From: a virus
DNA: 64,000 nucleotides
Direction: 5' to 3' (one strand)
Virus record (IMG/VR): IMGVR_UViG_3300042346_000326
Span: 33,381-97,380 of that record
Shown: piece after piece, positions 3,248-17,761 of the stretch
How the letters are laid out: the number at the start of each line of letters is the position of its first letter
How positions within the stretch are numbered: the stretch's first letter is position 1
The notes under the pieces: model-generated
The model's database searches: none
Seen by the model: only the letters and a program-made list of their open reading frames with translations
Told to the model about the DNA's origin: nothing
Position numbers and translations under genes: made by a program

Positions 3248-5272
3248 ATGGTAGGGGATATGAATTATTTTTCTTTTAAGTTGGCTGAAGACTTTGTTAC
3301 TCAATACAAAGGCAAGAAGTCACCTTTTGGTTATCAAGACGCTGGCGGGAATTCTGTAGGAGAGATTACCTTTCTTCGTACCTATTCTCGTCTAAAGGAA
3401 GATGGTCGCAAAGAGACGTGGGTTGATGTATGTGAGCGGGTTATCAATGGCATGTACTCTCTACAGAAGGACCACGCTAAGAGTCAACGTCTTCCATGGT
3501 CTGATGCCAAAGCAGCAGCCTCCGCTAAGGAAGCATTTGACCGCCTCTTCAATCTAAAGTGGACACCACCTGGACGTGGTCTGTGGGTCATGGGCACGCC
3601 TCTTGTGAATGTCCAACGAAACTCCGCAGCATTACAAAACTGTGCATTCGTCTCGACTGGTTCCATGACAAAGACAGACCCAGCAAAACCATTTGCTTTC
3701 TTAATGGAAGCATCGATGCTGGGAGTTGGTGTTGGTTTTGATGACAAGGGCGCAGACAAAGACTTCACTATCTATGCACCACAAGGAGAACTCGATTATG
3801 AAATCCCTGATACAAGAGAAGGCTGGGTTGAATCAACTGCATCACTTATTAATGCCTACCTACGACCAGACTCTAAGGCTCCAAAGTTTGATTATTCAAA
3901 GGTTCGCCCAGCAGGAGAACCAATTAAGATATTTGGTGGAACAGCAGCAGGACCAGACCCGTTAATTAAACTTCACGACTTGATTCGTGGAATGTTCGAT
4001 AGTCGTGCAGGTCAGAAATTAACTCGCAGAGACATCGCAGACATCGGCAACATGATTGGTGTCTGTGTTGTATCTGGAAATGTTCGTCGTTCTGCTGAGT
4101 TGCTTATGGGCAGACTTGATGATGAAGAGTTTCTAAACCTTAAGAACTACGACAAACACCCAGAGCGCCTTGCTCATGGCTGGATGTCAAACAACTCTGT
4201 TGAGGTATCTGTTGGTCAAGACCTATCGCCAATCATTGATGGTATTGCTCGCAACGGTGAGCCAGGAGTTATCTGGATGGATGTCACTCGCAAGTATGGT
4301 CGCCTTGCTGACCCTGAGAACAACAAGGATTGGCGTGCTGTTGGCTACAACCCATGCGCTGAACAGTCACTTGAATCCTACGAATGCTGCACACTAGTTG
4401 AGACCTACCTCAATCGCCACGAGAACCTAGAAGACTTTTTGCGCACCCTAAAGTTTGCATATCTTTATGCAAAGACTGTAACGCTTCTTCCTACTCACTG
4501 GGAAGAGACCAACGCCATCATGCAGCGCAATCGTCGTATTGGAACTTCTATATCTGGCGTTGCAAACTTTGCAGATAACAGGGGCTTGCCAACTCTTCGT
4601 GAGTGGATGGATAAAGGCTATTCAGTAATTCAAAGTTATGACAAGAACTACTCTGAGTGGCTAGGTATCCGTGAGTCAATCAAGACTACAACTGTTAAGC
4701 CAAGCGGAACAGTCTCTATCCTTGCTGGTGAATCTCCTGGAGTTCACTGGTCTGTTGGTGGCAAATACTTTATGCGTGCTATTCGTTTTGCAAACAATGA
4801 CCCAATGCTTCCATTGTTTAAGATGGCGAATTACAGAGTAGAACCCGCCAATGAATCTCCTGATACGACTTCTGTTGTCTTCTTCCCTGTAAAGTCAGAT
4901 GCTATACGTTCTGAGAAGGATGTAAGTATCTACGAGAAGATGGCACTTGCTGCTACTGCACAAAGATATTGGTCAGATAACTCTGTAAGTGTGACTATCT
5001 CATTTGACCCTGAAAAAGAGTCTTCGGCTATTGGAACTGTGCTTCACATGTATGACGGACAGTTAAAGACAGTCTCATTCTTACCAAGTGGTAACCATAT
5101 CTATCCTCAAATGCCTTACACACAGATAGGTGAAGAGTTCTACAACGATGCAACTATGGAAATCTTCCCGATTGATTTTAGTGGCGTTTATGCTGGAATG
5201 GCAGCCGATGCAATTGGTGAAGCGTATTGCACAACTGATGCGTGTGAGATAAAGTTAATCTCAAACACATAA
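3248..5272 (+). CDS. nrdJ: class II (B12-dependent) ribonucleotide reductase, monomeric RTPR type
   Basis: RTYSR, PPGRGLW, NC, GNVRRSA, NPCAEQ, TTVKPSGT, C-terminal CTTDAC. Confidence 0.93.
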   Translation: MVGDMNYFSFKLAEDFVTQYKGKKSPFGYQDAGGNSVGEITFLRTYSRLKEDGRKETWVDVCERVINGMYSLQKDHAKSQRLPWSDAKAAASAKEAFDRLFNLKWTPPGRGLWVMGTPLVNVQRNSAALQNCAFVSTGSMTKTDPAKPFAFLMEASMLGVGVGFDDKGADKDFTIYAPQGELDYEIPDTREGWVESTASLINAYLRPDSKAPKFDYSKVRPAGEPIKIFGGTAAGPDPLIKLHDLIRGMFDSRAGQKLTRRDIADIGNMIGVCVVSGNVRRSAELLMGRLDDEEFLNLKNYDKHPERLAHGWMSNNSVEVSVGQDLSPIIDGIARNGEPGVIWMDVTRKYGRLADPENNKDWRAVGYNPCAEQSLESYECCTLVETYLNRHENLEDFLRTLKFAYLYAKTVTLLPTHWEETNAIMQRNRRIGTSISGVANFADNRGLPTLREWMDKGYSVIQSYDKNYSEWLGIRESIKTTTVKPSGTVSILAGESPGVHWSVGGKYFMRAIRFANNDPMLPLFKMANYRVEPANESPDTTSVVFFPVKSDAIRSEKDVSIYEKMALAATAQRYWSDNSVSVTISFDPEKESSAIGTVLHMYDGQLKTVSFLPSGNHIYPQMPYTQIGEEFYNDATMEIFPIDFSGVYAGMAADAIGEAYCTTDACEIKLISNT

Positions 5273-5273
5273 G

Positions 5274-5308
5274 GAAAAAGCCCCTCGTAATTGAGGGGCT
5301 TTCTCTTT
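5274..5308. terminator. bidirectional intrinsic terminator between convergent genes
   Basis: AAAAGCCCCTC-gtaatt-GAGGGGCTTT with A and T runs on either side. Confidence 0.8.
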
Positions 5309-5316
5309 TGGTATTG

Positions 5317-6420
5317 CTTTTGGTATGACTTTGCTTTTTAAGCCTTTACCTATTGCTTTACCTATTTAGTTCTTGCCTTTGCCTTTTGCTATTGCTTTGG
5401 CTTTTGGCTTGGTATCAGGGAACTTTGCTATCCATTCTTGGGTTCTAGCGGTCATTCCCTTCCACGCACTCCAATTCTCGCCCCCATTGCTCATGTGATA
5501 AGCAATCTGAGCGTTTACCACAGGGTTTAGCAGTTCGGCATTGGAATCCAATCCAAACTTCGCTCTTCTGTCTGCACCCAACTCTCCTAGCATGTTTATC
5601 TGAAACAAGCCGTATGAGTTGTCGCCTGTTGAGGCGTTCCCATTATGTGCGAGCGGTCTACCCGATGATTCTTTCTTCGCAACTGCCCATGCTTCTCGTA
5701 GGTCTTGCCCTTCGAACCCAACTGCTTTCAGTAGGGCTACTAGTTCTAGGTCACTCAACTTGTGAGAGTTCTCGAACTTGGCAAGCAACTTGTCGCTGGA
5801 CTCTTGCTCGACTTGGGCTTCCAACGCCTCTGCCTTTGTGGGGCTAAACGCTGGAGTGATTCTCCCTACTCCGAATGTTCCTGAAAGGAACGCGGTAGTT
5901 AGAATCAACACTACAAGCCGATTTTGTGTTTCTAGTTTCATCAGTTCTCCTAACCCAGAAAGTCATTGACAATTTCACTCGCCTTTGATTTCTGGTGTCG
6001 AACGCGGTGTAAGTAGCGTTCGGTAGTTTTTATGGATTGATGACCCAATCGCTCTTTTACTTCATGGACATCAACGCCGTTTTTAAGTAACTGCGTTGCG
6101 TTCGCATGTCGTAAGTCGTGAGTTCTTGGACTCCAACCCATGCCTGATTTGGCTATTGCTTTGTTCCAAATGGTTCTCCATGTATCTCGTGGCAGGTGAC
6201 TCGGTTCGTCAAGTATGACTTCACCCTTTTGGTATGACTTTGCTCTTTGCGACCTTCGATACTCTCGAACTATCGCTTTACAATCGTCACACCTACAAGA
6301 CCCACTTGCGTAAGCCCTGAGCGTGCCATGTTGGAACAGTTTTCCGTCTTTCACGAATGGTCGTAAAGACTTTGCTGTGCCACGAGAATCTTTAATTTTA
6401 CCTTTTGGTATGACTTTGCT
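5317..6420. repeat. three exact 19-nt direct repeats CTTTTGGTATGACTTTGCT
   Basis: Copies at 5317-5335, 6226-6244 and 6402-6420. Confidence 0.85.
5366..5941 (-). CDS. secreted or membrane-anchored lysozyme-like / lytic transglycosylase
   Basis: N-terminal hydrophobic segment; AVAKKESSG (catalytic E), SYGLFQIN, WSAW. Confidence 0.85.
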   Translation of the reverse strand: MKLETQNRLVVLILTTAFLSGTFGVGRITPAFSPTKAEALEAQVEQESSDKLLAKFENSHKLSDLELVALLKAVGFEGQDLREAWAVAKKESSGRPLAHNGNASTGDNSYGLFQINMLGELGADRRAKFGLDSNAELLNPVVNAQIAYHMSNGGENWSAWKGMTARTQEWIAKFPDTKPKAKAIAKGKGKN

Positions 6421-7227
6421 TCTCTCAAAGACTAACTCTTCTTTTGCTATTCGATTTGCCCTGACAAACGCCTTTATCTCTAGTAACAGGGCTTCGGGCA
6501 ATACAACTGAACGCTTGTAACCTGACTTAGTGGCATCTACGACTAAGAATCTACTTCCGTTATTGCGTGCTTTGCCTAACTCACTCACTCGCCTCTGTAT
6601 AAAAACTTCTTTTGTATTGAAATTAAAATCTTTTAATCGAATCTCTGTGGCTTCTCCGAAGCGTGCGCCCGAAGCAACAAGGAACTTCGCAAACAACTTC
6701 GCACCCTCTGTCGGTAAGTGACTAACAATCTTCTTGAACTCGTCAGGCTCGACCACATTGGAAATGTCCGATTTGCCTACTTTGACCTTTATGCCACGAG
6801 TCGGGTTGGTTTGGGCTATTTGCCCCTCTTGTAACCATTTGTAGAGAGAGCCTAGACACGCCTTGATTTGAGCCAGCGTTGCGCCACCGACCCCCTGAGC
6901 CTTCAATTCGCCCAAGAGTTCTCGGACTTCAAGCGTGGATACCTCAGAAACGCGTTTAGAGCCGATTTGAGGGGCTAGATACCTGCCCCAAAGGGATTCA
7001 TACCCCTTCTTCGTGATAGGCAGTAATTCGGCGGTTCTAAGCCATTTTTCGGCATACTCAGAAAGGGTCAAATTAGCCCTTGAAGGGCTCTCTGAGCCCC
7101 CATTCTCCATGCGTAGGGCTTGATACCGAGCCTCACTCTCGGAAGCCCAAGTGCCAGCAGACAGGCGTTTAGAGCCCTGCCTGTAATAGCCTGTGAAGCG
7201 TGAGCCACGCCTGACCACATACGCCAC
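5950..7227 (-). CDS. tyrosine recombinase/integrase with inserted Zn-binding module
   Basis: GARFGE (R), HDLRH, LGHQSIKTTERY (H, Y); SAM-like N domain; HGT..Y..CRCDDC insertion. Confidence 0.92.
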   Translation of the reverse strand: MAYVVRRGSRFTGYYRQGSKRLSAGTWASESEARYQALRMENGGSESPSRANLTLSEYAEKWLRTAELLPITKKGYESLWGRYLAPQIGSKRVSEVSTLEVRELLGELKAQGVGGATLAQIKACLGSLYKWLQEGQIAQTNPTRGIKVKVGKSDISNVVEPDEFKKIVSHLPTEGAKLFAKFLVASGARFGEATEIRLKDFNFNTKEVFIQRRVSELGKARNNGSRFLVVDATKSGYKRSVVLPEALLLEIKAFVRANRIAKEELVFERSKVIPKGKIKDSRGTAKSLRPFVKDGKLFQHGTLRAYASGSCRCDDCKAIVREYRRSQRAKSYQKGEVILDEPSHLPRDTWRTIWNKAIAKSGMGWSPRTHDLRHANATQLLKNGVDVHEVKERLGHQSIKTTERYLHRVRHQKSKASEIVNDFLG

Positions 7228-7229
7228 GA

Positions 7230-7324
7230 AAGCCCCCTCTACTCGTGAGTAACATTACTGATGAGTAAGTTACTGACGAGTAACATCTAGGTCAAATCCG
7301 AAGCCCCCTCTACTGATGAGTAAC
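7230..7324. promoter_or_regulatory. array of four palindromic (T)TACT-N4-AGTAA sites upstream of the recombinase
   Basis: Sites at 7240-7252, 7255-7268, 7270-7283, 7311-7323; longer repeat AAGCCCCCTCTACT..GAGTAAC at 7230 and 7301. Confidence 0.75.
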
Positions 7325-7333
7325 TTATGGGCA

Positions 7334-7370
7334 TAAAAAAGACCCCCATTCCTGATACGGAATGAGGGTC
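7334..7370 (-). terminator. intrinsic terminator of the minus-strand operon
   Basis: Minus strand GACCCTCATTCC-gtatca-GGAATGGGGGTC-TTTTTT. Confidence 0.8.
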
Positions 7371-7372
7371 GG

Positions 7373-7425
7373 TCACATAATGACTAAGTGCTTAGACGAG
7401 TTGAGTTATTCGCTTATGTGTTTTC
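7373..7425 (-). ncRNA. 3' arm of a split structured RNA (pairs with 15991-16513)
   Basis: Four contiguous segments are reverse-complementary to 16498-16513, 16136-16148, 16020-16028 and 15991-16007 in nested order. Confidence 0.7.
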
Positions 7426-7629
7426 GGATTCAGAAACTACTTCAAGTTCTGATTCTTTTCGATTCTGATTCCATTCTTCGATTGTTTTCTTTTTCCATAC
7501 AGGAGTTCTTCCTATGTATGTATCGGGTTCGGGAAGGGTGTTTCTTCTTCGATAAGTGTAAAGAGTTGAATACTTTAATCCTAACAACTCGCTTACTTGG
7601 TCGTTCGTTAGCCATTCGTTCTCACTCAC
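7414..7629 (-). CDS. AlpA/excisionase-like helix-turn-helix protein
   Basis: WLTNDQVSELLGLKYSTLYTY..LPEPD..GRTPVW. Confidence 0.8.
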   Translation of the reverse strand: MSENEWLTNDQVSELLGLKYSTLYTYRRRNTLPEPDTYIGRTPVWKKKTIEEWNQNRKESELEVVSESENT

Positions 7630-8069
7630 TTTGTTTCCTTTACATAAAGTTGTTGTGATTCATTGTTGAACCACAAGTAAGGTAAATCATTTTCAATGTT
7701 GAAGTGATAGTAAGTTGAATCTTTGCGATTCAGATTACTCTGATGTGAATTGTGAAAGTTTGGATTGCCAAACCACTTTGGTAATTCACAATCAGGATAC
7801 ATTGAATGAAGTGCTACAAACTTTTCACGCATTGTGTCTTTGTAACCACGAACAATCCATTCATCACAGATTGCGATTCCGTATTCACAAAGTAACTTCT
7901 CGTGACCGCGCCACAGATTCGTAGCAGGGTGATTGCGCCAACCTTTTGTTTCGCCACGAAGCGCACGAAGTATCTGCCACGCTTCTACGCGTTGCTTACC
8001 TAGTCGCTTGTAATCGAGAGCCTGAGCCGACTTAACAAAGTCGGGATAAGGCAGGAATGTATTAACCAT
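7626..8069 (-). CDS. pyrimidine-dimer DNA glycosylase / MSMEG_6728-like protein
   Basis: TFLPYPDF..LDYKRLGKQRVEAWQIL..WRNHPA..HQSNL.RKD. Confidence 0.85.
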   Translation of the reverse strand: MVNTFLPYPDFVKSAQALDYKRLGKQRVEAWQILRALRGETKGWRNHPATNLWRGHEKLLCEYGIAICDEWIVRGYKDTMREKFVALHSMYPDCELPKWFGNPNFHNSHQSNLNRKDSTYYHFNIENDLPYLWFNNESQQLYVKETK

Positions 8070-8236
8070 TAGAATCCGTCACTTTCTAAAGTAGAAACAG
8101 TTATAGAAGTTTTTATTGCGCTATCGTCTGAGTATTCAGCACTCTCTAACGCTTCATACGCTTCCTCTTCTGAGGTCGCATAAGCAACAACTGAATGTGT
8201 AGTTACAACTTCCACAATCGCTTTGTATCTAATCAT
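8069..8236 (-). CDS. small hypothetical protein (55 aa, MIRYKAIVEV...)
   Basis: Fills the gap with start/stop overlaps on both sides; GAAAGGAG RBS; not in the ORF track. Confidence 0.65.
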   Translation of the reverse strand: MIRYKAIVEVVTTHSVVAYATSEEEAYEALESAEYSDDSAIKTSITVSTLESDGF

Positions 8237-8562
8237 TGGGATTTACTCCTTTCGGCTTTGCGGATTAGTTTGTGTCGTTCTGACTCAGTAGTGCCACCCC
8301 AAATCCCATAACGAATCCGATTCGTTACCGCAAAGGAAAGACACTTAGTTGTTTCGTGGCATTGAGAACATAAAGATTTCGCCATTGAAATCTTTTCAAT
8401 GTCTTCGGGGATTGTTTGGCCACTAGGAAACCAAATCTCAGGGTCGTTCTGTTGGCAGGGTGTCTTGTCATAGTCACGAGCCATTGGCACTTTGAGATTG
8501 AAAACAGGATTGTTAGTCGCTCTCTTTGGTTGTGCCGAAGGTAATCGTTTGATGTAAGTCAT
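8233..8562 (-). CDS. whiB: WhiB-family transcriptional regulator
   Basis: C..DPEIWFP..AKSLCSQC..C..GIWGG; four conserved Cys. Confidence 0.92.
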   Translation of the reverse strand: MTYIKRLPSAQPKRATNNPVFNLKVPMARDYDKTPCQQNDPEIWFPSGQTIPEDIEKISMAKSLCSQCHETTKCLSFAVTNRIRYGIWGGTTESERHKLIRKAERSKSQ

Positions 8563-9215
8563 GCGTTTATCTCCTTTCGTTGCTCTTTGTTAGTGAATTG
8601 GGGAAGTTCATTATTGTTTTGGTGGTCGTTGTCGTTACAATCTGAACAGATTGTCTGTTGCGTAGTCTGCTCACAACCACATTCGCAATCACAACTTCCA
8701 CAATCTTCACAACCTTCATAACATTCTCCCCATTTCTGTATGCGCCATTCACAATTCATCTCGCCTTCTTCTCGTGAAACTAACTTTCCTTTTTCGTATT
8801 CAAGTTCTCCGTAATAACCCATTCCCTCTTCTTGGTATTTAAGAGTTATAGAAGTGAATGGATACTTCTCCGCAATCGCTTCAACGATAGGAGTTGGCGG
8901 TGACCATGCGGTATTAAATGAGATTGAAACTTCTGTTGGAGATTCAATTCGCAATTCAACATCACAGGCGTTCCACTTAGTTCCCCACTTGGCGCAACGA
9001 AAGTTATACCAATCCTCGTATCCGTATTTATCTTTCATCTCTTGTGGGTTAGTTCTATTTGGCGAACTTGAATCAAGAAGTTCTTGTGGAGTAGGAATAA
9101 TCCGATTGAAGTCGAATGGTTGGTCTGAATCGTTTGTAATGCCCTGAATCAACTTTGTAAATTGTTTTGGGGTCTTTGTTGTAATAGTTAAATCGTTAGA
9201 ACACCAATTTGGCAT
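8559..9215 (-). CDS. DUF1281/YubB ferredoxin-like protein with Cys-rich tail
   Basis: MPNWC start with GAAAGGAG RBS; WY..R..WGTKWNA, FNTAWSPP; start reassigned from 9389. Confidence 0.75.
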   Translation of the reverse strand: MPNWCSNDLTITTKTPKQFTKLIQGITNDSDQPFDFNRIIPTPQELLDSSSPNRTNPQEMKDKYGYEDWYNFRCAKWGTKWNACDVELRIESPTEVSISFNTAWSPPTPIVEAIAEKYPFTSITLKYQEEGMGYYGELEYEKGKLVSREEGEMNCEWRIQKWGECYEGCEDCGSCDCECGCEQTTQQTICSDCNDNDHQNNNELPQFTNKEQRKEINA

Positions 9216-9219
9216 AACT

Positions 9220-9385
9220 AACTCCTTTCTTTGTAATAGGAATCGAATGAGGGCAGATACAACTCGCAACGCGTGGTCGAAAGGAGTTCTGTAAGCCCCA
9301 CGAGTGGTCATGGTTGCTCTTAGCGTTGATAGGTCGTAGGGAATGAAAGAACCTACAAGGTCAATCGCTTTGACCCTCACTCGAT
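9220..9385 (-). promoter_or_regulatory. structured intergenic RNA element with anti-SD loop
   Basis: Closing helix 9242-9253/9374-9385 with G-U on the minus strand; 9279-9288 complementary to the RBS at 9220-9229. Confidence 0.55.
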
Positions 9386-9389
9386 ACAT

Positions 9390-9941
9390 TTATTTAGTTA
9401 ATTGTTTGTGAGCGTGGTATCTCCAATTACGAGAACGCTTCACAGTAATAATGTCGTGGCAATTATGACAACGCACTACACACTTTTGTATTTCTTTTTT
9501 AATCTTGTGTAATGGTTGTATGTCACGAATCATGTCAGCGATTGTGTGTTCCTTTTCGCCCCTTGTATGTAGGTGGTCAAAGGTAAGTGAGCGAATGTCG
9601 GAATCTAAAGTCTTTATCACTTGGTTAATTGTCGAAGTTGGAACTTTGCCAGCAAGTAACTTCTTAATGCGAAGTTTCTTTTTGGCGCAATCAACGCAGG
9701 TGTGTTTAGCAAAGTAATTCGCCAAGAACTTATGAATCTCTTTCTTACGGATTCTTCGGTTCTTATACATTCTTTGTAATTGAGCCTTAGTGTTCTTTCG
9801 ATAGTAAGCCTTCTGTCGCTCGCTTTGGCAGGGTCGGCAATAGGGTTGTGTATTGCCGACAACGCCACGAGTCGAACGCTTACGATTGAAAGCGGTAAGT
9901 GATTTACGAGTTTTACAATGACTACAAACTTTTGTTTTCAT
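9390..9941 (-). CDS. HNH-type endonuclease with Zn fingers
   Basis: CSHC..CRPC, CVDC, LTFDH..KCVVRCHNCH. Confidence 0.75.
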   Translation of the reverse strand: MKTKVCSHCKTRKSLTAFNRKRSTRGVVGNTQPYCRPCQSERQKAYYRKNTKAQLQRMYKNRRIRKKEIHKFLANYFAKHTCVDCAKKKLRIKKLLAGKVPTSTINQVIKTLDSDIRSLTFDHLHTRGEKEHTIADMIRDIQPLHKIKKEIQKCVVRCHNCHDIITVKRSRNWRYHAHKQLTK

Positions 9942-10504
9942 TTATTAACCTTTCTCAATCTAAAGTTCCACCTTTGTCTAGCCATTCAGCGAAACAAATT
10001 GGGCAACCTAAACTGATTGCTTTTTCTGCTGGATACTCGTGACCTCTAAAACATTTTTTATTAGTCATAACTCTCCTAACTAAGAACTTTCTGAACGCAG
10101 TTAAAGCAGAACCATAAAACAGATTCGTTATACGAATCCTTTATGTCTTTGCCTGATGTAGTCAATCCTTCCTGATTACAAGAATCGCAAAGCGATAATT
10201 GGTCAGGTGTAACTCTGATTATTTCTACATAACCCACAGTTATTCCCCCTCTCCTTCAATCATTGAGAATGAAGTTCCAATAGCGACCCCGATAAGAGTC
10301 GCTATTGTTACTAATACAAAGAATGTAATCACTTTGTCACCTCATCTATCATCTTTTGGCATGAGCCATAGCCCAAGAAGTTTGCGTAGGGTTTATCGCC
10401 CACATAACAAACATCACGAGTTATGTATGACATAAAGATAAGTAGAAGAGTGGCAGGAATTATTACAAGAACAATCCAACCTCTTCTAGTTAGTTTTGTT
10501 CCAC

Positions 10505-11146
10505 TCATGGCGTTACCTCTTTCGGATACAAGTTAGTCAATGGCAAAGTTTTGTAATGAACATCATTAGCGTTGCTAGGAGTCATGTAAGAAACAATGAA
10601 TCTGCTTCCTGTCGTTGCGACAATCTTGCCTAGTCGTGTTCTACCAAAGGCACGAATCGCAACAACATCACCAATACCAGCATTGAATACATGACTATCA
10701 TCATGGCGAATACTTTGACGATAAGTGATTGCCAACGCTCGCAATTCATCTTTGATTGAATACATAGAAGCAAGTAAGTCAATCTTCTTACGAACTTTCT
10801 TTAGAGCAATTTCAAGATTGTGTGAGCCCCAACCTGTTGTAACGCACCCCTGAGAAAGCCAAGCGAGATTGTATAAATGGTCAAAGAAACCGCCGACTTC
10901 CCAAACGAATGATTCGTATTTAGAAGTTGTGACTCCGTTTGTTGGAGTTGAGAAGTCACGCTTCCACACAACGATTGCGAATCCTTTATAGATTTCACAA
11001 TGGTAATCAGAATCAACGAGCCGACCATGATTCAACCAATTTCCGTCAATTATCTTTCTCTTGAATCTCTCTAAATAAAAAGATTCATCATTTGGAATTG
11101 GCGTTGCGGTAACAACGCCATTCTCTTCTGTAATTGTGTGTGCCAT
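10505..11146 (-). CDS. hypothetical protein
   Basis: 213-aa ORF coupled to the upstream gene. Confidence 0.6.
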   Translation of the reverse strand: MAHTITEENGVVTATPIPNDESFYLERFKRKIIDGNWLNHGRLVDSDYHCEIYKGFAIVVWKRDFSTPTNGVTTSKYESFVWEVGGFFDHLYNLAWLSQGCVTTGWGSHNLEIALKKVRKKIDLLASMYSIKDELRALAITYRQSIRHDDSHVFNAGIGDVVAIRAFGRTRLGKIVATTGSRFIVSYMTPSNANDVHYKTLPLTNLYPKEVTP

Positions 11147-11754
11147 TACGCCACCAAGTCCTTTGCTTCGAGAACCTTCTCGATAAGAGTTTCCATTAGG
11201 GAGAGTTCAACTTGAACAACCGCAAGAGTTTTGTATTCATTATTAACTCTTACATTATTTGTATCGAATTGAACTGATTGTGGAGTTACACGATTGCCAA
11301 GAATCCCTGTCAATGTGTCACGCAAAGAAGTTTCCATACGCTCTTTGTTTGCCTGAGCAATTCGGCGTTCCTCTTCACGCTTTAATTGTTCCTGCTCTGC
11401 TTTCTTGCGTTCTTCTTCCTCTTGGCGTTTCTCTTCATTCCAGCGTGGTTCAAGAGTTGCCCACAACGCAACAATGTCTTGTGGTCGTGCGAGCCAATAC
11501 ATGTCTTGATTGTTTTCCTTAGCAACAACAAGATAGCCAACTGCTCGCTCTCCCTGTTTTGCTTTAACGAATCCTGAATCATCAGGTTGATGTGACCTAA
11601 AAACTTTGTATTCATACTTTGTTAATGACACAAGGTTTGCTTTTACAACATCATTCTTACGAACTCTGTCGGGGTCTTTCTTATCGCGTGATGAGTATTG
11701 CCATGACGGAATGATTGCGTAGTCATGTCCAGCAATTAAATCGGAGAACTTCAT
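11146..11754 (-). CDS. hypothetical protein with coiled coil
   Basis: Start MKFSDL after AGAAAGAGAG RBS; central E/K/R-rich helix. Confidence 0.65.
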   Translation of the reverse strand: MKFSDLIAGHDYAIIPSWQYSSRDKKDPDRVRKNDVVKANLVSLTKYEYKVFRSHQPDDSGFVKAKQGERAVGYLVVAKENNQDMYWLARPQDIVALWATLEPRWNEEKRQEEEERKKAEQEQLKREEERRIAQANKERMETSLRDTLTGILGNRVTPQSVQFDTNNVRVNNEYKTLAVVQVELSLMETLIEKVLEAKDLVA

Positions 11755-11861
11755 TTGTATTACTCTCTTTCTTATTTGTATTTGTTTATTTGTATTTGGA
11801 ATGTGGGGCGTATAAATCTCGTAGATACGCCCCACACTTGTCACCTAGAGAGTGACATTTG

Positions 11862-13790
11862 TTAGTTGGATACAACTCTTCTGCCAATCGCATTACGAAC
11901 GATTGTGCGAGCCATACCAACAAGGTCGAATGGATTACGAATCACCGCACCAACTTCGCAGAAGTGAGCCTTCTCGTGAGTTAGTTCAACTGATTCGTGT
12001 TGGTCAGGAATGTATGCGAACGCAGTTAATACGCCAGCATTATTCATCTTCTTGATTTCAGGGTCACACAAGTTTGTGTCACTCCATTCTCCGTCAGTAA
12101 TTGCGAAGAAAAGTTTGACAGGCTTTTGTGACTCAGCAAGAAGTTTCGTTGAGTATTTGACCGCATACTCAGCAAGAGTGCCACCTGTTGTTCCACAATC
12201 TCTAACAGAATTGTTCGCCCTATCAGAAGCGCGATACAAAGTTGTTGTATGAGAATTGAAAACAATTACAGAGCAGTTAGCACCGATTCTGTCGAGTGCG
12301 AACTTAATCGCATACATGGCGCGATAAGCGTTGCTCGCTTTATCGCCACTCATAGAACCTGAATTGTCGAGAGCGATTACACATTCAATCTCTGTAACAT
12401 CTTCTCTGCCCTCACTCCATTGGTCGAATACTGTGTCTAAATCATCACCACGCATAAAGCGTGAAGCGTTTAATTTGCCACGAGATTCGTATTTATCCCA
12501 AGCAGGGTCGAACTTTGCTTTCAATCTCTCTAACTCACGAGCGAATGAAAGTGAAGCCGATTGTGTTTTGGAATCAGGAAGAACAGAACGATAGCGAGCG
12601 AGTTCAGGCTCTTCTAGTTTGTTAGTAGATAATGCTGATTGACCATTAACAATACGAATCGTGTTCTCAATCTCCTGACGAACAGAATCCTTATCAAGAA
12701 TGTCTGTAATAGCAGTATTAAGAATTGCGATTGTTTTGGTTGTGTCATTACCAGCACTATTACTAGGTGAATCAGATTGCGATTGAGATTGCGATTGAGA
12801 TTGTGAATCAGATTTAGATTGCGATTTAGTTTCGTCAATCGTGGTCTTATCTAATTGTTTAGCGCGTTCGCTATCGCGTGTCTGTTGCTTGGCAGGTTGT
12901 GGGCGCGAGTTGATAGAAGACTCAATGCCTTCTGTTGGTCGCTCACCATGACCCATTGGGCAATTAAGAATGATGTCACCTTTGCCATTTGGATTATTGC
13001 TAGGTGTTGATTCACCTAACAATTCTTTTTCCCAATCAGCAAGGTCAGAGTAATCACGAACATTCTGTTCGCCACTCTCACCTTGTTCGCCACCATTACC
13101 GCCTTCACCATGTCCTGACTTTGGAAGTAAGTTGTAGAAGCGTTCAATAAGTTTCTTACCGAGTTCTGTATCGCGTGGATAAATAAGTGTTCTGTATTCA
13201 TCAACGATTTCAGTTATCTCAGCAACTAATTCCTGATAAGGAAATAGTCGTAGCGATTCTTCACGAATCTCTAGCGGTAAGTATTTGCGCCCACGAAGTA
13301 ATGGATAAGAACTCTTAAATGCGTTCTCATCATTAACAAAGTAAGTCGCAATAGTTACTACGAACCAATCAACAGTTGAAGGGAATCGTGAAGTAAATAA
13401 GGTTTCAATACGCTGGTCTTCTAACGCATTAAACGCCTTGAAGTAATCATTCTCTTTGACCCAAGTAACAATCTCTGAGCCTTGTCGTGGAGTATAAAGA
13501 ATGTGTGACAACTCGTGGAAATTAAGACCACGAAGATTCGCAACACTTACGCCATTGTTAAGGTCGTTGATTAAACGAGAGTTAAGAGTGATGTCACTCG
13601 CACCTGACCAAGCAGGTGCTTCAAGTGAAGCGTGTTCTACTTTGACAGTAATCGGTCTGAAAGTCAGAGCCGAATTAACGCGAGCAAAGTAACGAGTCAA
13701 TCGCTCAACGCGTTGGCGATTGCGCTCATCTTCTTCCTCTTGGATTTTGCGAGCCCGACTAGCGAACTCTTCAATGAATGGAAGTGTCAT
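11862..13790 (-). CDS. VWA-domain protein with N-terminal HExxH metallopeptidase-like domain
   Basis: FHELSHILYT, FNALEDQRIE, MIDAS DNSGS, GGT, TDGE. Confidence 0.85.
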   Translation of the reverse strand: MTLPFIEEFASRARKIQEEEDERNRQRVERLTRYFARVNSALTFRPITVKVEHASLEAPAWSGASDITLNSRLINDLNNGVSVANLRGLNFHELSHILYTPRQGSEIVTWVKENDYFKAFNALEDQRIETLFTSRFPSTVDWFVVTIATYFVNDENAFKSSYPLLRGRKYLPLEIREESLRLFPYQELVAEITEIVDEYRTLIYPRDTELGKKLIERFYNLLPKSGHGEGGNGGEQGESGEQNVRDYSDLADWEKELLGESTPSNNPNGKGDIILNCPMGHGERPTEGIESSINSRPQPAKQQTRDSERAKQLDKTTIDETKSQSKSDSQSQSQSQSQSDSPSNSAGNDTTKTIAILNTAITDILDKDSVRQEIENTIRIVNGQSALSTNKLEEPELARYRSVLPDSKTQSASLSFARELERLKAKFDPAWDKYESRGKLNASRFMRGDDLDTVFDQWSEGREDVTEIECVIALDNSGSMSGDKASNAYRAMYAIKFALDRIGANCSVIVFNSHTTTLYRASDRANNSVRDCGTTGGTLAEYAVKYSTKLLAESQKPVKLFFAITDGEWSDTNLCDPEIKKMNNAGVLTAFAYIPDQHESVELTHEKAHFCEVGAVIRNPFDLVGMARTIVRNAIGRRVVSN

Positions 13791-13796
13791 GGTTTC

Positions 13797-15158
13797 CTAA
13801 CCAATTAGTGATTCGTTATTAACAACATTTGTAATGCCTAAATCTTCTTTTAGATTGTAAGCATTTGCTTCTAACAACATACGAACCGCAGGGCGTTCGT
13901 TTTGGTCGAAGTTATTAACAAAGACTTCGCAAGCGAAATCAAAGTTAAGACCTGTCGCTAACTTCTCAAAGGTTTTGAGAATACGAGTTGAAACAGGTGT
14001 ATCGAAGATTGTGTTGCTATCAGTAATAGCAATTTCGTCAGCACCACGAGAGCGTGACCTCATGCCATAAGCAAGTTCGAGTAATGATTCTGATTTAAGA
14101 ATCTTCTTCTCAATGCTCTTGTCGTAGTTGTAGTTCAACTTAATCTCGAAGCGGTCTTTCCATGCTTCGTTAAGTAATGAAGTGCCACGATAATTTGGAT
14201 TCATGTCAGCGATAATCAACAAGTTGTCATTTGCTTTTACAACTTCGTTGCCATTCTCCATGATTGTAATTGAACGCCGATAATCAAGTAGTGGCATTAG
14301 GAATTGCTGAACATTCTTAGCGAGTGTATTTACTTCACCGATAAGAAGAACACCACCATTACGAACCAATCGTGTAACCGCGCCATCAACCCACGATAAA
14401 GAACCATTAGCGTTTGGAACATAACCGCCAACAATTTGTGTGTAATCAAGAGCAGAGTTAGAAGGAATCGCAAAGTATTGAACGCCAAGTAATGAAGCAA
14501 TCCACATTGAAGATGAAGTCTTACCTGTTCCAGCGTCACCATAAAGAAGAACATTTAGTTTGTTCTTCAATGCGAACTGATACATAGTGAGTTCATCAAC
14601 ATCACCAGCGAATGTGCGTTGAATGTAGTGCGAGAACTCTTCAATCTTTGGAATGAATAGCGAACGCTCTTCAATCGCAACCGATTGAGCAACCTGTGTA
14701 GTAACAGGTTGAATACGGATAACTGAATCGTGAGATACAACAGAGCCTTTAGTAGCGCGTTGCCCACGATTGTCGGTGTAGAACTTTCCTAACTCAGAAG
14801 GATTGTTCTTTACAGTATCGAATAGTGAATCAGCGACAACGATTGCTTCATCACCGAGTGTTTGGTCTGAGAGTGAGTGCTTACGAATTAGTTTCTGTAT
14901 TAGCACTCTTGGAAAACCATTGTCATTGAAATCTTCAATGTCATTAGGTGAAACAGGAATTGCGACAGGCTCGCCAATTAGTTGCTCGCCACTATCGAAT
15001 TGAAACGCGCCCTCTTGCCACGCGTTCTGTTTGCCTTGCTTACCATTTGTGAATCTCCAACGAGTAACAACAGAGTCGTTGAAGTTTGCGATAAATACCT
15101 GACGAGTAACTGATACATCAGCAGGTTGTGACACGATAAGTGTTCCGTAGTTTGTCAT
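13797..15158 (-). CDS. MoxR/CbbQ-type AAA+ ATPase
   Basis: Walker A GDAGTGKT, Walker B LLIGEVN, MNPNYRGT..LNEAWKDRF, VSTR; adjacent to the VWA partner. Confidence 0.88.
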   Translation of the reverse strand: MTNYGTLIVSQPADVSVTRQVFIANFNDSVVTRWRFTNGKQGKQNAWQEGAFQFDSGEQLIGEPVAIPVSPNDIEDFNDNGFPRVLIQKLIRKHSLSDQTLGDEAIVVADSLFDTVKNNPSELGKFYTDNRGQRATKGSVVSHDSVIRIQPVTTQVAQSVAIEERSLFIPKIEEFSHYIQRTFAGDVDELTMYQFALKNKLNVLLYGDAGTGKTSSSMWIASLLGVQYFAIPSNSALDYTQIVGGYVPNANGSLSWVDGAVTRLVRNGGVLLIGEVNTLAKNVQQFLMPLLDYRRSITIMENGNEVVKANDNLLIIADMNPNYRGTSLLNEAWKDRFEIKLNYNYDKSIEKKILKSESLLELAYGMRSRSRGADEIAITDSNTIFDTPVSTRILKTFEKLATGLNFDFACEVFVNNFDQNERPAVRMLLEANAYNLKEDLGITNVVNNESLIG

Positions 15159-15187
15159 TTCTTTTCTTTCTCTAGGTGATTGGTTTG

Positions 15188-15472
15188 TTAGTTGTATTCG
15201 TTGATAGGTGTATCGGGATTGCTGATTACTGATTGAGATTTATTTTCTACATCAGTAAGTGTTTCAATGAGTGACTCGAATTGTTCTTCATTAACAATTC
15301 TTAGTCTGATTACTTCATTCATCTTTTCGATAACAGATTCGAGAGTTTCAATAAAGCCGACAGGTGGCTCGCTTCCATTCTCTACTACTTCTTTTGTTGA
15401 TTGTGCGATTCCCATTAGCCCCATTTGTAAGAAGCCAAGTTCATCTTTTGTGAAGTCGTATAACGGATTCAT
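15188..15472 (-). CDS. hypothetical acidic protein
   Basis: 94-aa ORF with GAAAGGA RBS. Confidence 0.6.
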   Translation of the reverse strand: MNPLYDFTKDELGFLQMGLMGIAQSTKEVVENGSEPPVGFIETLESVIEKMNEVIRLRIVNEEQFESLIETLTDVENKSQSVISNPDTPINEYN

Positions 15473-15557
15473 TTGTTTTCCTTTCGTGGTTCTAACTCAT
15501 TGTGAATCAAGCAGAACCATGACTCTTTGTCGTATGCGACAAGTGTGTGTTCAGTAT

Positions 15558-15680
15558 TCATTTAACGAGCCTTTCTTTGTGGTCTTTACGGACATGATTG
15601 GTAAGAGTTTCAGAAGCGAAACCGCTACGAACCTCTAGTTCTTTGTCGCATACAGGGCATTGAACAATTCTTTGCGCCAT
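15558..15680 (-). CDS. small C2H2 zinc-finger protein (40 aa)
   Basis: MAQRIVQCPVCDKELEVRSGFASETLTNHVRKDH; AAAGGAG RBS; not in the ORF track. Confidence 0.65.
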   Translation of the reverse strand: MAQRIVQCPVCDKELEVRSGFASETLTNHVRKDHKERLVK

Positions 15681-15737
15681 GTAAGTAACTCCTTTTCTCT
15701 GTAATGGGTATTCGGTATTAAGTTGTTTATTCAGTTG

Positions 15738-15911
15738 TTATTTAGTTGTATCTCGATAAGGAGTCCATGTAGTCCAGCGAGATTCGCCTTCTACATTTAT
15801 CCGTAACTTAACTAGGTCGTTGCGAACAGGAACTATCTCTTCAATGATTCCTGTAATGCGTGACTTAGTAGAAGTGAATAAGTCACCGATTGCGTATTTA
15901 TCTTTTTCCAT
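15738..15911 (-). CDS. small SH3-like hypothetical protein (57 aa), first gene of the minus operon
   Basis: MEKDKYAIGDLFTSTKSRITGIIEEI...; GGAAAGAGG RBS; not in the ORF track. Confidence 0.65.
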   Translation of the reverse strand: MEKDKYAIGDLFTSTKSRITGIIEEIVPVRNDLVKLRINVEGESRWTTWTPYRDTTK

Positions 15912-15990
15912 TGTGTTGCCTCTTTCCTTATGTAACCACCGCGATTGTCACCGAATCTCATTCACAGAATCGGTATCGGTGACAATCACA

Positions 15991-16518
15991 GAAAACACAT
16001 AAGCGAAATTACTAAGTATGAATAACTCGTTTATTCAATTACTGTCATTGTTCTTGGAACAGATTGGTTACTGTCGGCACTAACTATTGTTAGCAATCCA
16101 TAGGTAATGAATAACTGAGTTACACAACTTTCCGTAACTCGTCTAAGCCTTCTGCTATTCACAATAACTTTCGTTAATGTTGATTACGATTTATTAGGAG
16201 TGCGCTCTGCTCGCTTGTAACTTTTGTCGCTCGTAATTCGATACGCGGTAAGTTTGAGTATCGAATTAGTTATCGCGGATACAAGGTCTTCGCATAGAAG
16301 TCACTTCGTGCGTTCCGTTATTCGTAATTTAATTTAGTCGCGTAATGCGTAAATCATTTTGCCAATTTAATTTTGAGTATCACTCGCGGTCTTATGACCT
16401 ATTAAGTAAATTGAATAACTGCCGATAGTAAATTGGGATAATCACAATTACTAAATCGTCATAACAGTTTTTGCGTAATGAATCTAAATCGCAGATTCTT
16501 AGTCACTATGTAATTTTC
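15991..16518 (-). ncRNA. large (~520 nt) multi-helix structured RNA candidate
   Basis: No ORF; many local and long-range helices; UAAC-GAAA-GUUA tetraloop hairpin on the minus strand; pairs with 7373-7425. Confidence 0.75.
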
Positions 16519-17491
16519 TAAGTTCGAGTGGGTTCTTTGGAGAGCCTCTCGGCTCTACCTCTGACCACGCCCCAAGTATGCCATAGATTGACCGACTCAG
16601 TTTGCCACCCCTATTAAGAGCGTGTTTATGGGGCTTTTAGCCCCTAGAGCCCCTGCCCCCCAAGTAACCCACCTGCTATCACCACCGCTTCAGAAGAGTT
16701 AGTTAGTGAATGAGCGTGAGCCCCCACATAACTAATCGCGCCAAAGAGTTTTTCTTTTCAGTAATGACTAATACAAAGATAGTAATAGATAGATAGAAGT
16801 TAATAATAGAGATAGATAAATACCCACATAAGTAACTCGGTAACTACACTCAATTAGTCAATAATCAAATAAACACATAACAAAGTTTGTAATAGCAAAT
16901 AATTAAGTAACTTCTGACCTTCTGCTGTCGTATCTAAGCGTAGAAGAGTAAAAAGTAAGTAACTCCGCCGTTTAATTCTGGAAGTTACTTACTGACTAAC
17001 TCAGATAGCCCGTAACTAACTAGCCACCACCACCGCCATAACCGCCACCTGATACATCTTGTCGTTACAAGGAGAAGTGACTCATCTACCTACTAGGGAA
17101 TAACTGAGTTAGTCATAGTGATAGAAGATAATTGAAACAATTAGTAATAGATACATAACAACACATAACTAATAACGCGTTGCGTTACTAATGCGTGATT
17201 ATGTGATAACAACTGACTAGGTGACTCGTTGGCTTGGTGGTATCCGCACAGACCATGTTGCTAAATAAACAGTAGCCGAAGTGTTGTCACCAAAGTTGTC
17301 ACCAAGTTATTTGTTACACCTGATAACAACGCATGAGTTGAACAACAACCACCTGATTAGTAGTCAGGTGGTAGGTGTTCTCATGTGTAACTAACAACAA
17401 CCCCCCCACCATTAAACGGAAAACGCCAAATGAACAGCCAGGTGAGACACATGGTTGAGGGGTTGGGGCCAGGGCAGTAGCCAAAAGACGG

Positions 17492-17761
17492 CTAGTGGCC
17501 CTCGTCAATGGTCCACGCCTTATGGGTAGGAGAGTCCTTTATCATCTTTACGGTCTTATAGCCTGTAAGCCATTTAAGGGCATCCTTTAACGCCTGGTCT
17601 GATGTCTTAGATTGCCCTTTCATATACGTATAAGGCTGCTGTATCTCTGGATTAGTGGGGTATTCATGCCAACAGTCAGTTCTGATTCCCCAATGCCACA
17701 CAGATTTACGGTTTGTAACGAGGATTGTAAATTGGCCATTCACACATTTAGTGTAGTACAT
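17492..17761 (-). CDS. hypothetical protein (MYYTKC...)
   Basis: Isolated ORF between two 19-nt direct repeats. Confidence 0.45.
   Translation of the reverse strand: MYYTKCVNGQFTILVTNRKSVWHWGIRTDCWHEYPTNPEIQQPYTYMKGQSKTSDQALKDALKWLTGYKTVKMIKDSPTHKAWTIDEGH

Follow-up and report, generated by a model that had tools for sequence, protein, structure and literature searches.

A 3′ trailer complementary to three segments of the structured 5′ leader in a freshwater phage operon of about 9 kb

In the virus record IMGVR_UViG_3300042346_000326 of IMG/VR (97,380 base pairs (bp), with direct terminal repeats), a minus-strand operon of about 16 open reading frames (ORFs) ends in a short 3′ trailer that is complementary to three separate segments, termed H1, H2 and H3, of the operon's own 5′ leader, about 9 kilobases (kb) away. 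The DNA analysed here comprises bases 33381–97380 of that record and is referred to as the window (64,000 nucleotides (nt)); near-identical DNA is present in many lake-water metagenomes, and a look-up of RNA runs for 7300–16700 listed none. We found that the complementarity between trailer and leader is real and lies far beyond chance. The part of the leader that runs from H2 to the start codon is, to judge from its alignment among relatives, a real RNA structure of the sense strand. We favour, at a rough probability of one half, the reading that the two ends form an operon-intrinsic RNA–RNA device in which the trailer, made last, would bind the leader and provide delayed feedback, most likely with a negative effect.

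Complementarity between trailer and leader

The original prediction described four inverted matches between the two regions, standing in nested order, and re-checking confirmed its particulars: the coordinates (Table 1), the lengths (17/17, 9/9, 13/13 and 14/16 nt), the nesting and the G–U character of both mismatches in the last match, which read as U–G and G–U on the minus strand. Within the window, both the 17-mer and the 13-mer are otherwise single-copy, and no other exact copy of the 17-mer was found in viral contigs. Across the whole 97-kb genome the leader is the only long target of the trailer, other complementary targets being at most 11 nt long. We also performed an unbiased scan in which every 50-nt segment over about 12 kb downstream was scored against the leader by spliced alignment, and the trailer of this phage ranked first (z = 7.1). 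Co-folding of trailer and leader, as originally suggested, gave a predicted net binding of −26 kcal/mol, far beyond the −6 ± 2 kcal/mol obtained with 30 shuffled trailers. Taken together, the unique words, the top rank in the scan and the co-folding energy relative to shuffles exclude chance. The predicted duplex totals 45–55 bp, and its longest uninterrupted helix is 17–21 bp. An 11-nt copy of the H1 word CTTATGTGTTT also occurs towards the far end of the block of minus-strand genes, at 5263–5273 (minus strand) and about 95 nt downstream of a lysozyme-like gene; this copy may be due to chance.

The AAA protein encoded in the operon retrieved 23 viral and 25 metagenome loci, and 18 distinct related lake-phage contigs that hold both ends of the operon made up our comparison set. 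In 18/18 of these contigs, the scan gave its best score to the 50-nt segment directly 5′ of the terminator, the one followed by the integrase-side palindromes; z ranged from 4.3 to 9.6, compared with at most 4.9 at decoy leader positions. The trailers lie 8.0–10.1 kb downstream of the leader core, and three complementary boxes are present in every locus. H2 varies by subgroup, being GCTTAGACGAGTT here, GGGCTTAGGGAA in L013 and GGCTAGTGAAGATTGCG in L019, and both arms change together. An all-versus-all matrix of trailers and leaders gave a mean score of 64.9 for cognate pairs versus 41.7 for non-cognate pairs and revealed 8 specificity groups, and in the trailer alignment 697 of the 740 helix cells pair, with 35 columns changed on both sides.

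The enclosed genes behave differently from the arms. The first genes of the operon differ between subgroups, and one relative carries an extra ORF of 92 amino acids between the excisionase-like gene and the trailer (L008:18732–19010), where the trailer stays with the terminator despite the insertion. The arms are thus conserved while the cargo varies; the 18 contigs, the matrix and the trailer alignment bear out the expectation that both arms would be conserved and co-vary in relatives whereas the genes between them would not be fixed. The leader motifs are absent from more distant relatives, at 51% AAA identity (the group of L009, L010, L024 and L046–L048), and by sequence comparison the system is confined to one clade.

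Three of the four originally proposed helices are conserved in this comparison. The 9/9 match, by contrast, is not conserved as a partner of the trailer: relatives extend H1 contiguously instead, the 9-nt word (AGTTATTC) occurs four times in the leader, and in this window the segment is part of a leader-internal helix that closes domain D2.

The original prediction further suggested that the constraint acts at the RNA level, on the coding (minus) strand. The internal mismatches of the long-range helices comprise about 15 G–U versus 5 A–C on the operon-sense strand, a suggestive excess that is partly shared by descent. The leader itself contains many U–G pairs, which correspond to C–A on the opposite strand. 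The G–U mismatches support this claim, and the co-variation of the leader and its U–G pairs are the stronger evidence for it.

Leader RNA and trailer module

In transcription order the leader consists of D0, H3, D1, H2, D2, H1, a 16-bp hairpin, the motif ACATAAG, a Shine–Dalgarno sequence and the ATG (Table 1). We aligned 16 leaders from H2 to the start codon and compared the result with 500 shuffles. The alignment folds into 38 consensus pairs, in which 97.2% of the cells pair, compared with 79.5% in shuffles, and 26 of the 38 pairs have undergone compensatory change; 0 of the 500 shuffles reached either the pairing or the compensation figure. In slid controls, with the partner shifted by one to three columns, 29–51% of the leader cells paired. 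Upstream of H2, support for the leader comes from conserved blocks and from the closing helix of D1, which co-varies in relatives (TCTGC/GCAGA, AACGC/GCGTT, CACGC/GCGTG and ACCGC/GCGGT). The stem of the hairpin at 16165–16176 co-varies as well, whereas its GAAA loop is invariant. The core of D2 is strongly conserved in the order ATGGATTGC, hairpin, GTGCCGACAGTAACCAATCTG and AGAACAATGA, and its closing helix (−9 to −29 kcal/mol) has a different sequence in every subgroup.

The D1 and D2 closing helices, both of which co-vary, abut H3/H2 and H2/H1, respectively. Because the domains close right beside the H segments, these segments are linkers. The sequence of H2 is variable yet always matches the cognate trailer, and no conserved internal partner for H2 was found in the leader alignment. 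In the model that follows from this arrangement, the bound trailer would leave the domains folded and, together with the linkers, make up a quasi-continuous duplex that carries two three-way junctions. As had been proposed, the architecture looks like that of a structured RNA in two parts, with the missing strand encoded at the 3′ end of the operon. H1 competes with a local alternative partner, the invariant ACATAAG beside the Shine–Dalgarno sequence and just before the ribosome-binding site (RBS). Predictions of RBS accessibility with and without blocked H segments in 11 loci gave no consistent direction, with the start codon mis-picked in two of the loci.

Upstream of H3, an element of the TGnCATAAT or TGnTTCAAT type is conserved, with TGGCATAAT or TGGTTCAAT in relatives, and is a candidate extended −10 promoter. 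Its distance to H3 is 72 nt here and in L041, and about 195–250 nt in the other relatives with a recognised element. From this position, the 5′ untranslated region (UTR) would include all three H segments and measure roughly 655 nt in this phage and 800 nt in the others. Both arms of the pairing lie on the same strand, between this promoter-like element and the terminator. At 16514–16568, eight relatives (L003, L005, L008, L013 and L016–L019) carry an extra conserved block of about 125–180 nt (gtgaaaaaggctaaa...cagagtgacgaaa), which indicates that the leader has been shortened in this phage. A search of the whole window against Rfam 15 gave no match at gathering score, and leader and trailer matched Rfam only at chance level (E > 0.8).

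Trailer and terminator hairpin make up a module of about 95 nt, and everything in it outside the terminator is antisense to H1, H2 and H3. On its own, the trailer is predicted to fold into a hairpin closed by CACAUAA/UUAUGUG with the partner of H2 in its loop, followed by the terminator hairpin. A hairpin with an exposed loop and then a terminator is typical of antisense RNAs, and in the predicted fold H2 is a natural toehold for the trailer. The conserved 5′ motif of the trailer, ACACATAAGC, mimics ACATAAG, the local partner of H1. Trailers in relatives are contiguous and 35–55 nt long, and consist of three abutting parts, each directed against a separate leader segment, with 0–2 unpaired nt between helices; they end 0–6 nt before the intrinsic terminator in all loci. 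The previous ORF ends, in most loci, somewhere from 14 nt inside the trailer to about 47 nt before it, and no conserved −10/−35 was seen upstream of the trailers.

Two further elements flank the module. Every relative has TTACT-N4-AGTAA palindromes in the interval from the terminator to the integrase start (in the same place in L002–L023), and in subgroups B and C an inverted pair, AAGTAACT...AGTTACTT, also flanks a small hairpin immediately 5′ of the trailer. The palindromes and the inverted pair may serve as operators or arm-type sites, or form an RNA stem.

Table 1 Features of the operon, its leader and its trailer (positions in the window)
Feature	Position	Strand	Description
ORF-free region	15912–17313	−	1.4 kb
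Candidate extended −10 promoter	16575–16583	−	TGGCATACT; predicted transcription start near 16568; conserved consensus match
Structured 5′ leader	15912–16568	−	About 655 nt, with a predicted 5′ end; ORF-free, no credible ORF
H3	16498–16513	−	14/16 inverted match, pairs with trailer 7373–7388; box conserved, co-varies with trailer in relatives
D1 closing helix, 5′ strand	16484–16497	−	Box AATCTGCGATTTAG after H3; pairs with 16149–16165
GAAA-tetraloop hairpin, conserved box and D1 closing 3′ strand	16149–16176	−	Hairpin at 16165–16176; box ATTGTGAATAGC
H2	16136–16148	−	Linker; 13/13 inverted match, pairs with trailer 7390–7402
Leader domain D2	16008–16135	−	Closed by its own long helix; conserved core 16045–16101
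9/9 match	16020–16028	−	Inverted match to 7403–7411; part of D2 closing helix
H1	15991–16007	−	17/17 inverted match, pairs with trailer 7409–7425; core CTTATGTG invariant, flanks co-vary with trailer
Leader 3′ part	15909–15990	−	16-bp covarying hairpin; ACATAAG (15927–15933); Shine–Dalgarno GGAAAGAGG; ATG 15909–15911
Enclosed operon	7414–15911	−	About 16 ORFs; AAA_5, VWA, DUF1281_C, WhiB, Pyr_excise and HTH_17/excisionase recognised; others small ORFs
3′ trailer	7373–7425	−	53 nt; contiguous antisense to H1, H2 and H3; directly 5′ of terminator
Intrinsic terminator	7341–7370	−	12-bp stem, then six T
Four TTACT-N4-AGTAA palindromes	7228–7323		Upstream of integrase
Tyrosine integrase region	5950–7323	−	Integrase 5950–7227; context, outside the RNA pairing

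Possible roles of the pairing and known counterparts

The sequence comparison shows a large structured leader RNA and, at the very end of the same operon, a dedicated antisense module that co-evolves with it. Because the trailer is transcribed last, the complex would form only after RNA polymerase had crossed the operon. Its target might then be the leader of the same transcript (action in cis) or, if the trailer became a 3′-end fragment protected by the terminator, newly made leaders (action in trans). A negative effect might arise by several routes: the long duplex would be a substrate for RNase III, the leader would lose a function of its own, or the ACATAAG/CTTATGT helix beside the RBS of the first gene would be displaced. 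We infer the transcript ends, the processing, the choice between cis and trans and the sign of the effect from sequence, and the sign is uncertain. Several points weigh against delayed feedback. The transcript, its two ends and any processed fragment are predictions from sequence and comparative analysis, and the candidate promoter is a conserved consensus match. Moreover, the excess of G–U over A–C is modest once shared ancestry is allowed for, and the three-way-junction architecture fits a completing role, positive or structural, equally well.

We give tentative weight to one such role, in which the leader is a split ornate RNA whose last strand lies about 9 kb downstream. Completing the operon would supply the staple that assembles the leader domains on a rod of about 50 bp, and the product would be a transcription-completion sensor or a completion-assembled RNA machine, with a function beyond ordinary antisense feedback, for example timed self-processing or looping of the whole early messenger RNA (mRNA). 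Somewhat more doubtful is a completing or protective role in general, positive or structural in sign, in which the trailer either finishes a large ornate RNA or closes a loop of the full-length mRNA that is stabilised or stays locked until processing; the tac–fbi pairing in hok mRNA is a precedent for an end-locked mRNA. The linkers between self-closed domains, which give clean three-way junctions with the domains still folded, are consistent with completion, as are the near-absence of unpaired nucleotides between the helices of the trailers and the strong conservation of the leader core. However, over 9 kb the 5′ end would need to outlive the synthesis of the 3′ end, and the displacement of the local H1/ACATAAG helix is a better fit to a switch than to pure completion. 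A different proposal starts from the presence of an integrase and an excisionase-like gene in a genome in which we found no match to the HTH_3, HTH_31 or Peptidase_S24 repressor families (whole 97-kb genome): trailer and terminator would together constitute a small immunity RNA, transcribed in lysogens from a promoter of its own, which silences the early operon through the leader boxes, much like the CI RNA of P4 and the c4 RNA of P1/P7. The several short complementary boxes in one leader, and the antisense-like hairpin followed by a terminator, would suit such an immunity RNA. We nevertheless consider it improbable, given that the trailers have no conserved −10/−35 upstream and little intergenic room, and that the prophage searches, in which the AAA protein had no match in genome contigs, gave no copy of this family in 185,579 species genomes, which leaves lysogeny of this phage family unproven.

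Less probable again is a reset of antitermination, in which the leader, like put or EAR elements, would travel with the polymerase and act as a processive antiterminator until the trailer strips it off, and termination would occur ahead of attP and the integrase gene. Although trailer and terminator adjoin in all loci, including the one with an inserted gene, and the long operon contains weak internal terminator-like hairpins, the leader has no similarity to known antiterminator RNAs, the terminator is strong by itself and the idea is speculative. Finally, the inverted repeats flank an 8.6-kb segment beside the integrase, as would be expected of DNA-level sites, whether for inversion by the adjacent tyrosine recombinase or for a shared DNA-binding protein. 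The two arms are not equivalent, however: one is a contiguous 53 nt and the other is dispersed over 520 bp in three or four pieces. Each helix also has its own sequence and co-varies pairwise, 18/18 relatives share one orientation, and the mismatches favour G–U on one strand. The non-equivalent arms, the helix-specific co-variation and the single orientation make DNA sites very unlikely. The guide-like recognition of DNA for the recombinase, which the original prediction had mentioned as a lesser alternative, finds no support. Two equivalent inverted sites, or both orientations in populations, as in invertible segments, were not found. In line with the single orientation, contigs of four lake or drinking-water DNA runs aligned to 5000–17600 contained no inversion joint at the repeats, although contigs have limited power here; nor was there a loose end near 7230–7370 in contigs of four metagenome runs, which rare isomers or integrated forms may escape.

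The closest counterparts of the system in logic are OppZ and CarZ of Vibrio cholerae, which are autoregulatory small RNAs derived from 3′ UTRs (PMC7398697). As in those systems, in which the output feeds back, an RNA at the 3′ end of the operon shares the operon terminator and, in silico, base-pairs with its own operon transcript. In the phage operon, by contrast, the trailer is directed against a structured 5′ leader of about 650–800 nt and not the RBS of an internal cistron, its pairing has three parts and spans about 45–55 bp in place of a short seed, the processing is putative and the host is probably an actinobacterium. To our knowledge, actinobacteria lack Hfq.

In geometry, the closest counterparts are the mRNAs icaR, hbs and hok and the stalks of ribosomal RNA (rRNA) operons. 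The tac–fbi pairing of hok sets the fold of the mRNA once the full transcript exists. Pairing between the 5′ and 3′ UTRs of one mRNA is also found in icaR of Staphylococcus aureus (PMC3868564) and hbs of Bacillus subtilis (PMC5737220). In all three, as predicted here, base pairing joins the 3′ end of the mRNA to its 5′ region, with effects there on translation, RNase III cleavage or stability; but those mRNAs are monocistronic, measure 0.4–1.5 kb and use a single helix, whereas the operon described here has about 16 genes over about 9 kb and three helices beside folded domains. In the processing stalk of rRNA operons, leader and trailer pair and loop out kilobases, and the stem is a substrate for RNase III. 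The flanking leader and trailer form a long duplex in silico here too, but what would be looped out is an operon of protein-coding genes, two large leader domains break up the stem, and cleavage is putative.

Other systems share single features with the operon. The phage antisense immunity RNAs P4 CI and P1/P7 c4 carry several short boxes complementary to leader sites, as the trailer does for the leader of its own operon; those RNAs are processed out of the leader and lie within a few hundred nt of their targets, whereas the trailer lies 8–10 kb downstream, at the end of the operon. In flaviviruses, the 5′–3′ UAR, DAR and CS elements are likewise several nested complementary pairs that join the ends of an RNA of about 10 kb; those elements serve the replication of an RNA virus, and the likeness is one of analogy alone. 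GOLLD and ROOL are large, conserved non-coding RNAs with complex folds, found in phage genomes recovered from lake and other metagenomes (PMC12286853). The leader resembles them in being a large, conserved phage RNA with a complex fold, but they neither head operons nor have a partner strand elsewhere, and their covariance models gave no match here. What separates the operon from OppZ/CarZ, icaR, hbs, hok and the rRNA stalks is its protein-coding span of about 9 kb, the tripartite pairing of about 50 bp, the ornate leader and the three-way-junction design. We know of no bacterial or phage polycistronic mRNA of about 9 kb, other than those of rRNA operons, for which base pairing between both ends has been described, and of none with this co-variation and junction architecture. 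If the pairing is functional, the phage would report full transcription of the operon to its start and would possess a protein-free, built-in timer or feedback. With the leader, a new large structured RNA of about 650–800 nt from abundant freshwater phages joins the short list of ornate RNAs. The at least 8 natural specificity variants ease compensatory-mutation tests and are possible orthogonal RNA regulators.

The operon and its surroundings

The minus-strand block reads, in transcription order, as the ORF-free region, the operon, the 53-nt trailer, the terminator, the palindromes and the integrase. Most of the originally proposed gene content was recovered by domain matches in the operon ORFs: AAA_5, VWA, WhiB, Pyr_excise (a pyrimidine-dimer glycosylase) and an HTH_17, excisionase-like protein were confirmed, whereas HNH was not found at E ≤ 0.01 among the ORFs scanned. 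The first gene (15738–15911) encodes a protein of 57 amino acids with no Pfam match, the N-terminal motif of which, Y-x-I-G-D-L-F-T-S-T-K, is kept in subgroups A and C; a different first gene is present in the others. Inside the operon, at 9938–10095, a drinking-water contig (X12) has 21 other letters in place of 156 bp, a strain-level indel. We also considered the terminator stem as the site of the attP core, which is unlikely because the stem co-varies between relatives.

A megablast search of the phage collection gave no matches to near-identical phages, and a search for transfer RNAs found none. The leader-core motif had 37 matches in 596 gigabases, about the chance expectation, all of them without the neighbouring conserved core motifs. 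With this search and that for the AAA protein both empty, neither a host nor attL and attR could be assigned by matching; WhiB and the lake origin suggest that the host is a freshwater actinobacterium. Upstream of the leader promoter lies a further ORF-free stretch of about 700 bp (16600–17313) with repeated (A)GTTACTTA and TTATGTG(G/T) words. Relatives from several subgroups share a conserved block of it, ctgaaaagaaaaactc...gattagttatgtggggg. The stretch might serve as an origin or as an array of operators, or encode a second RNA.

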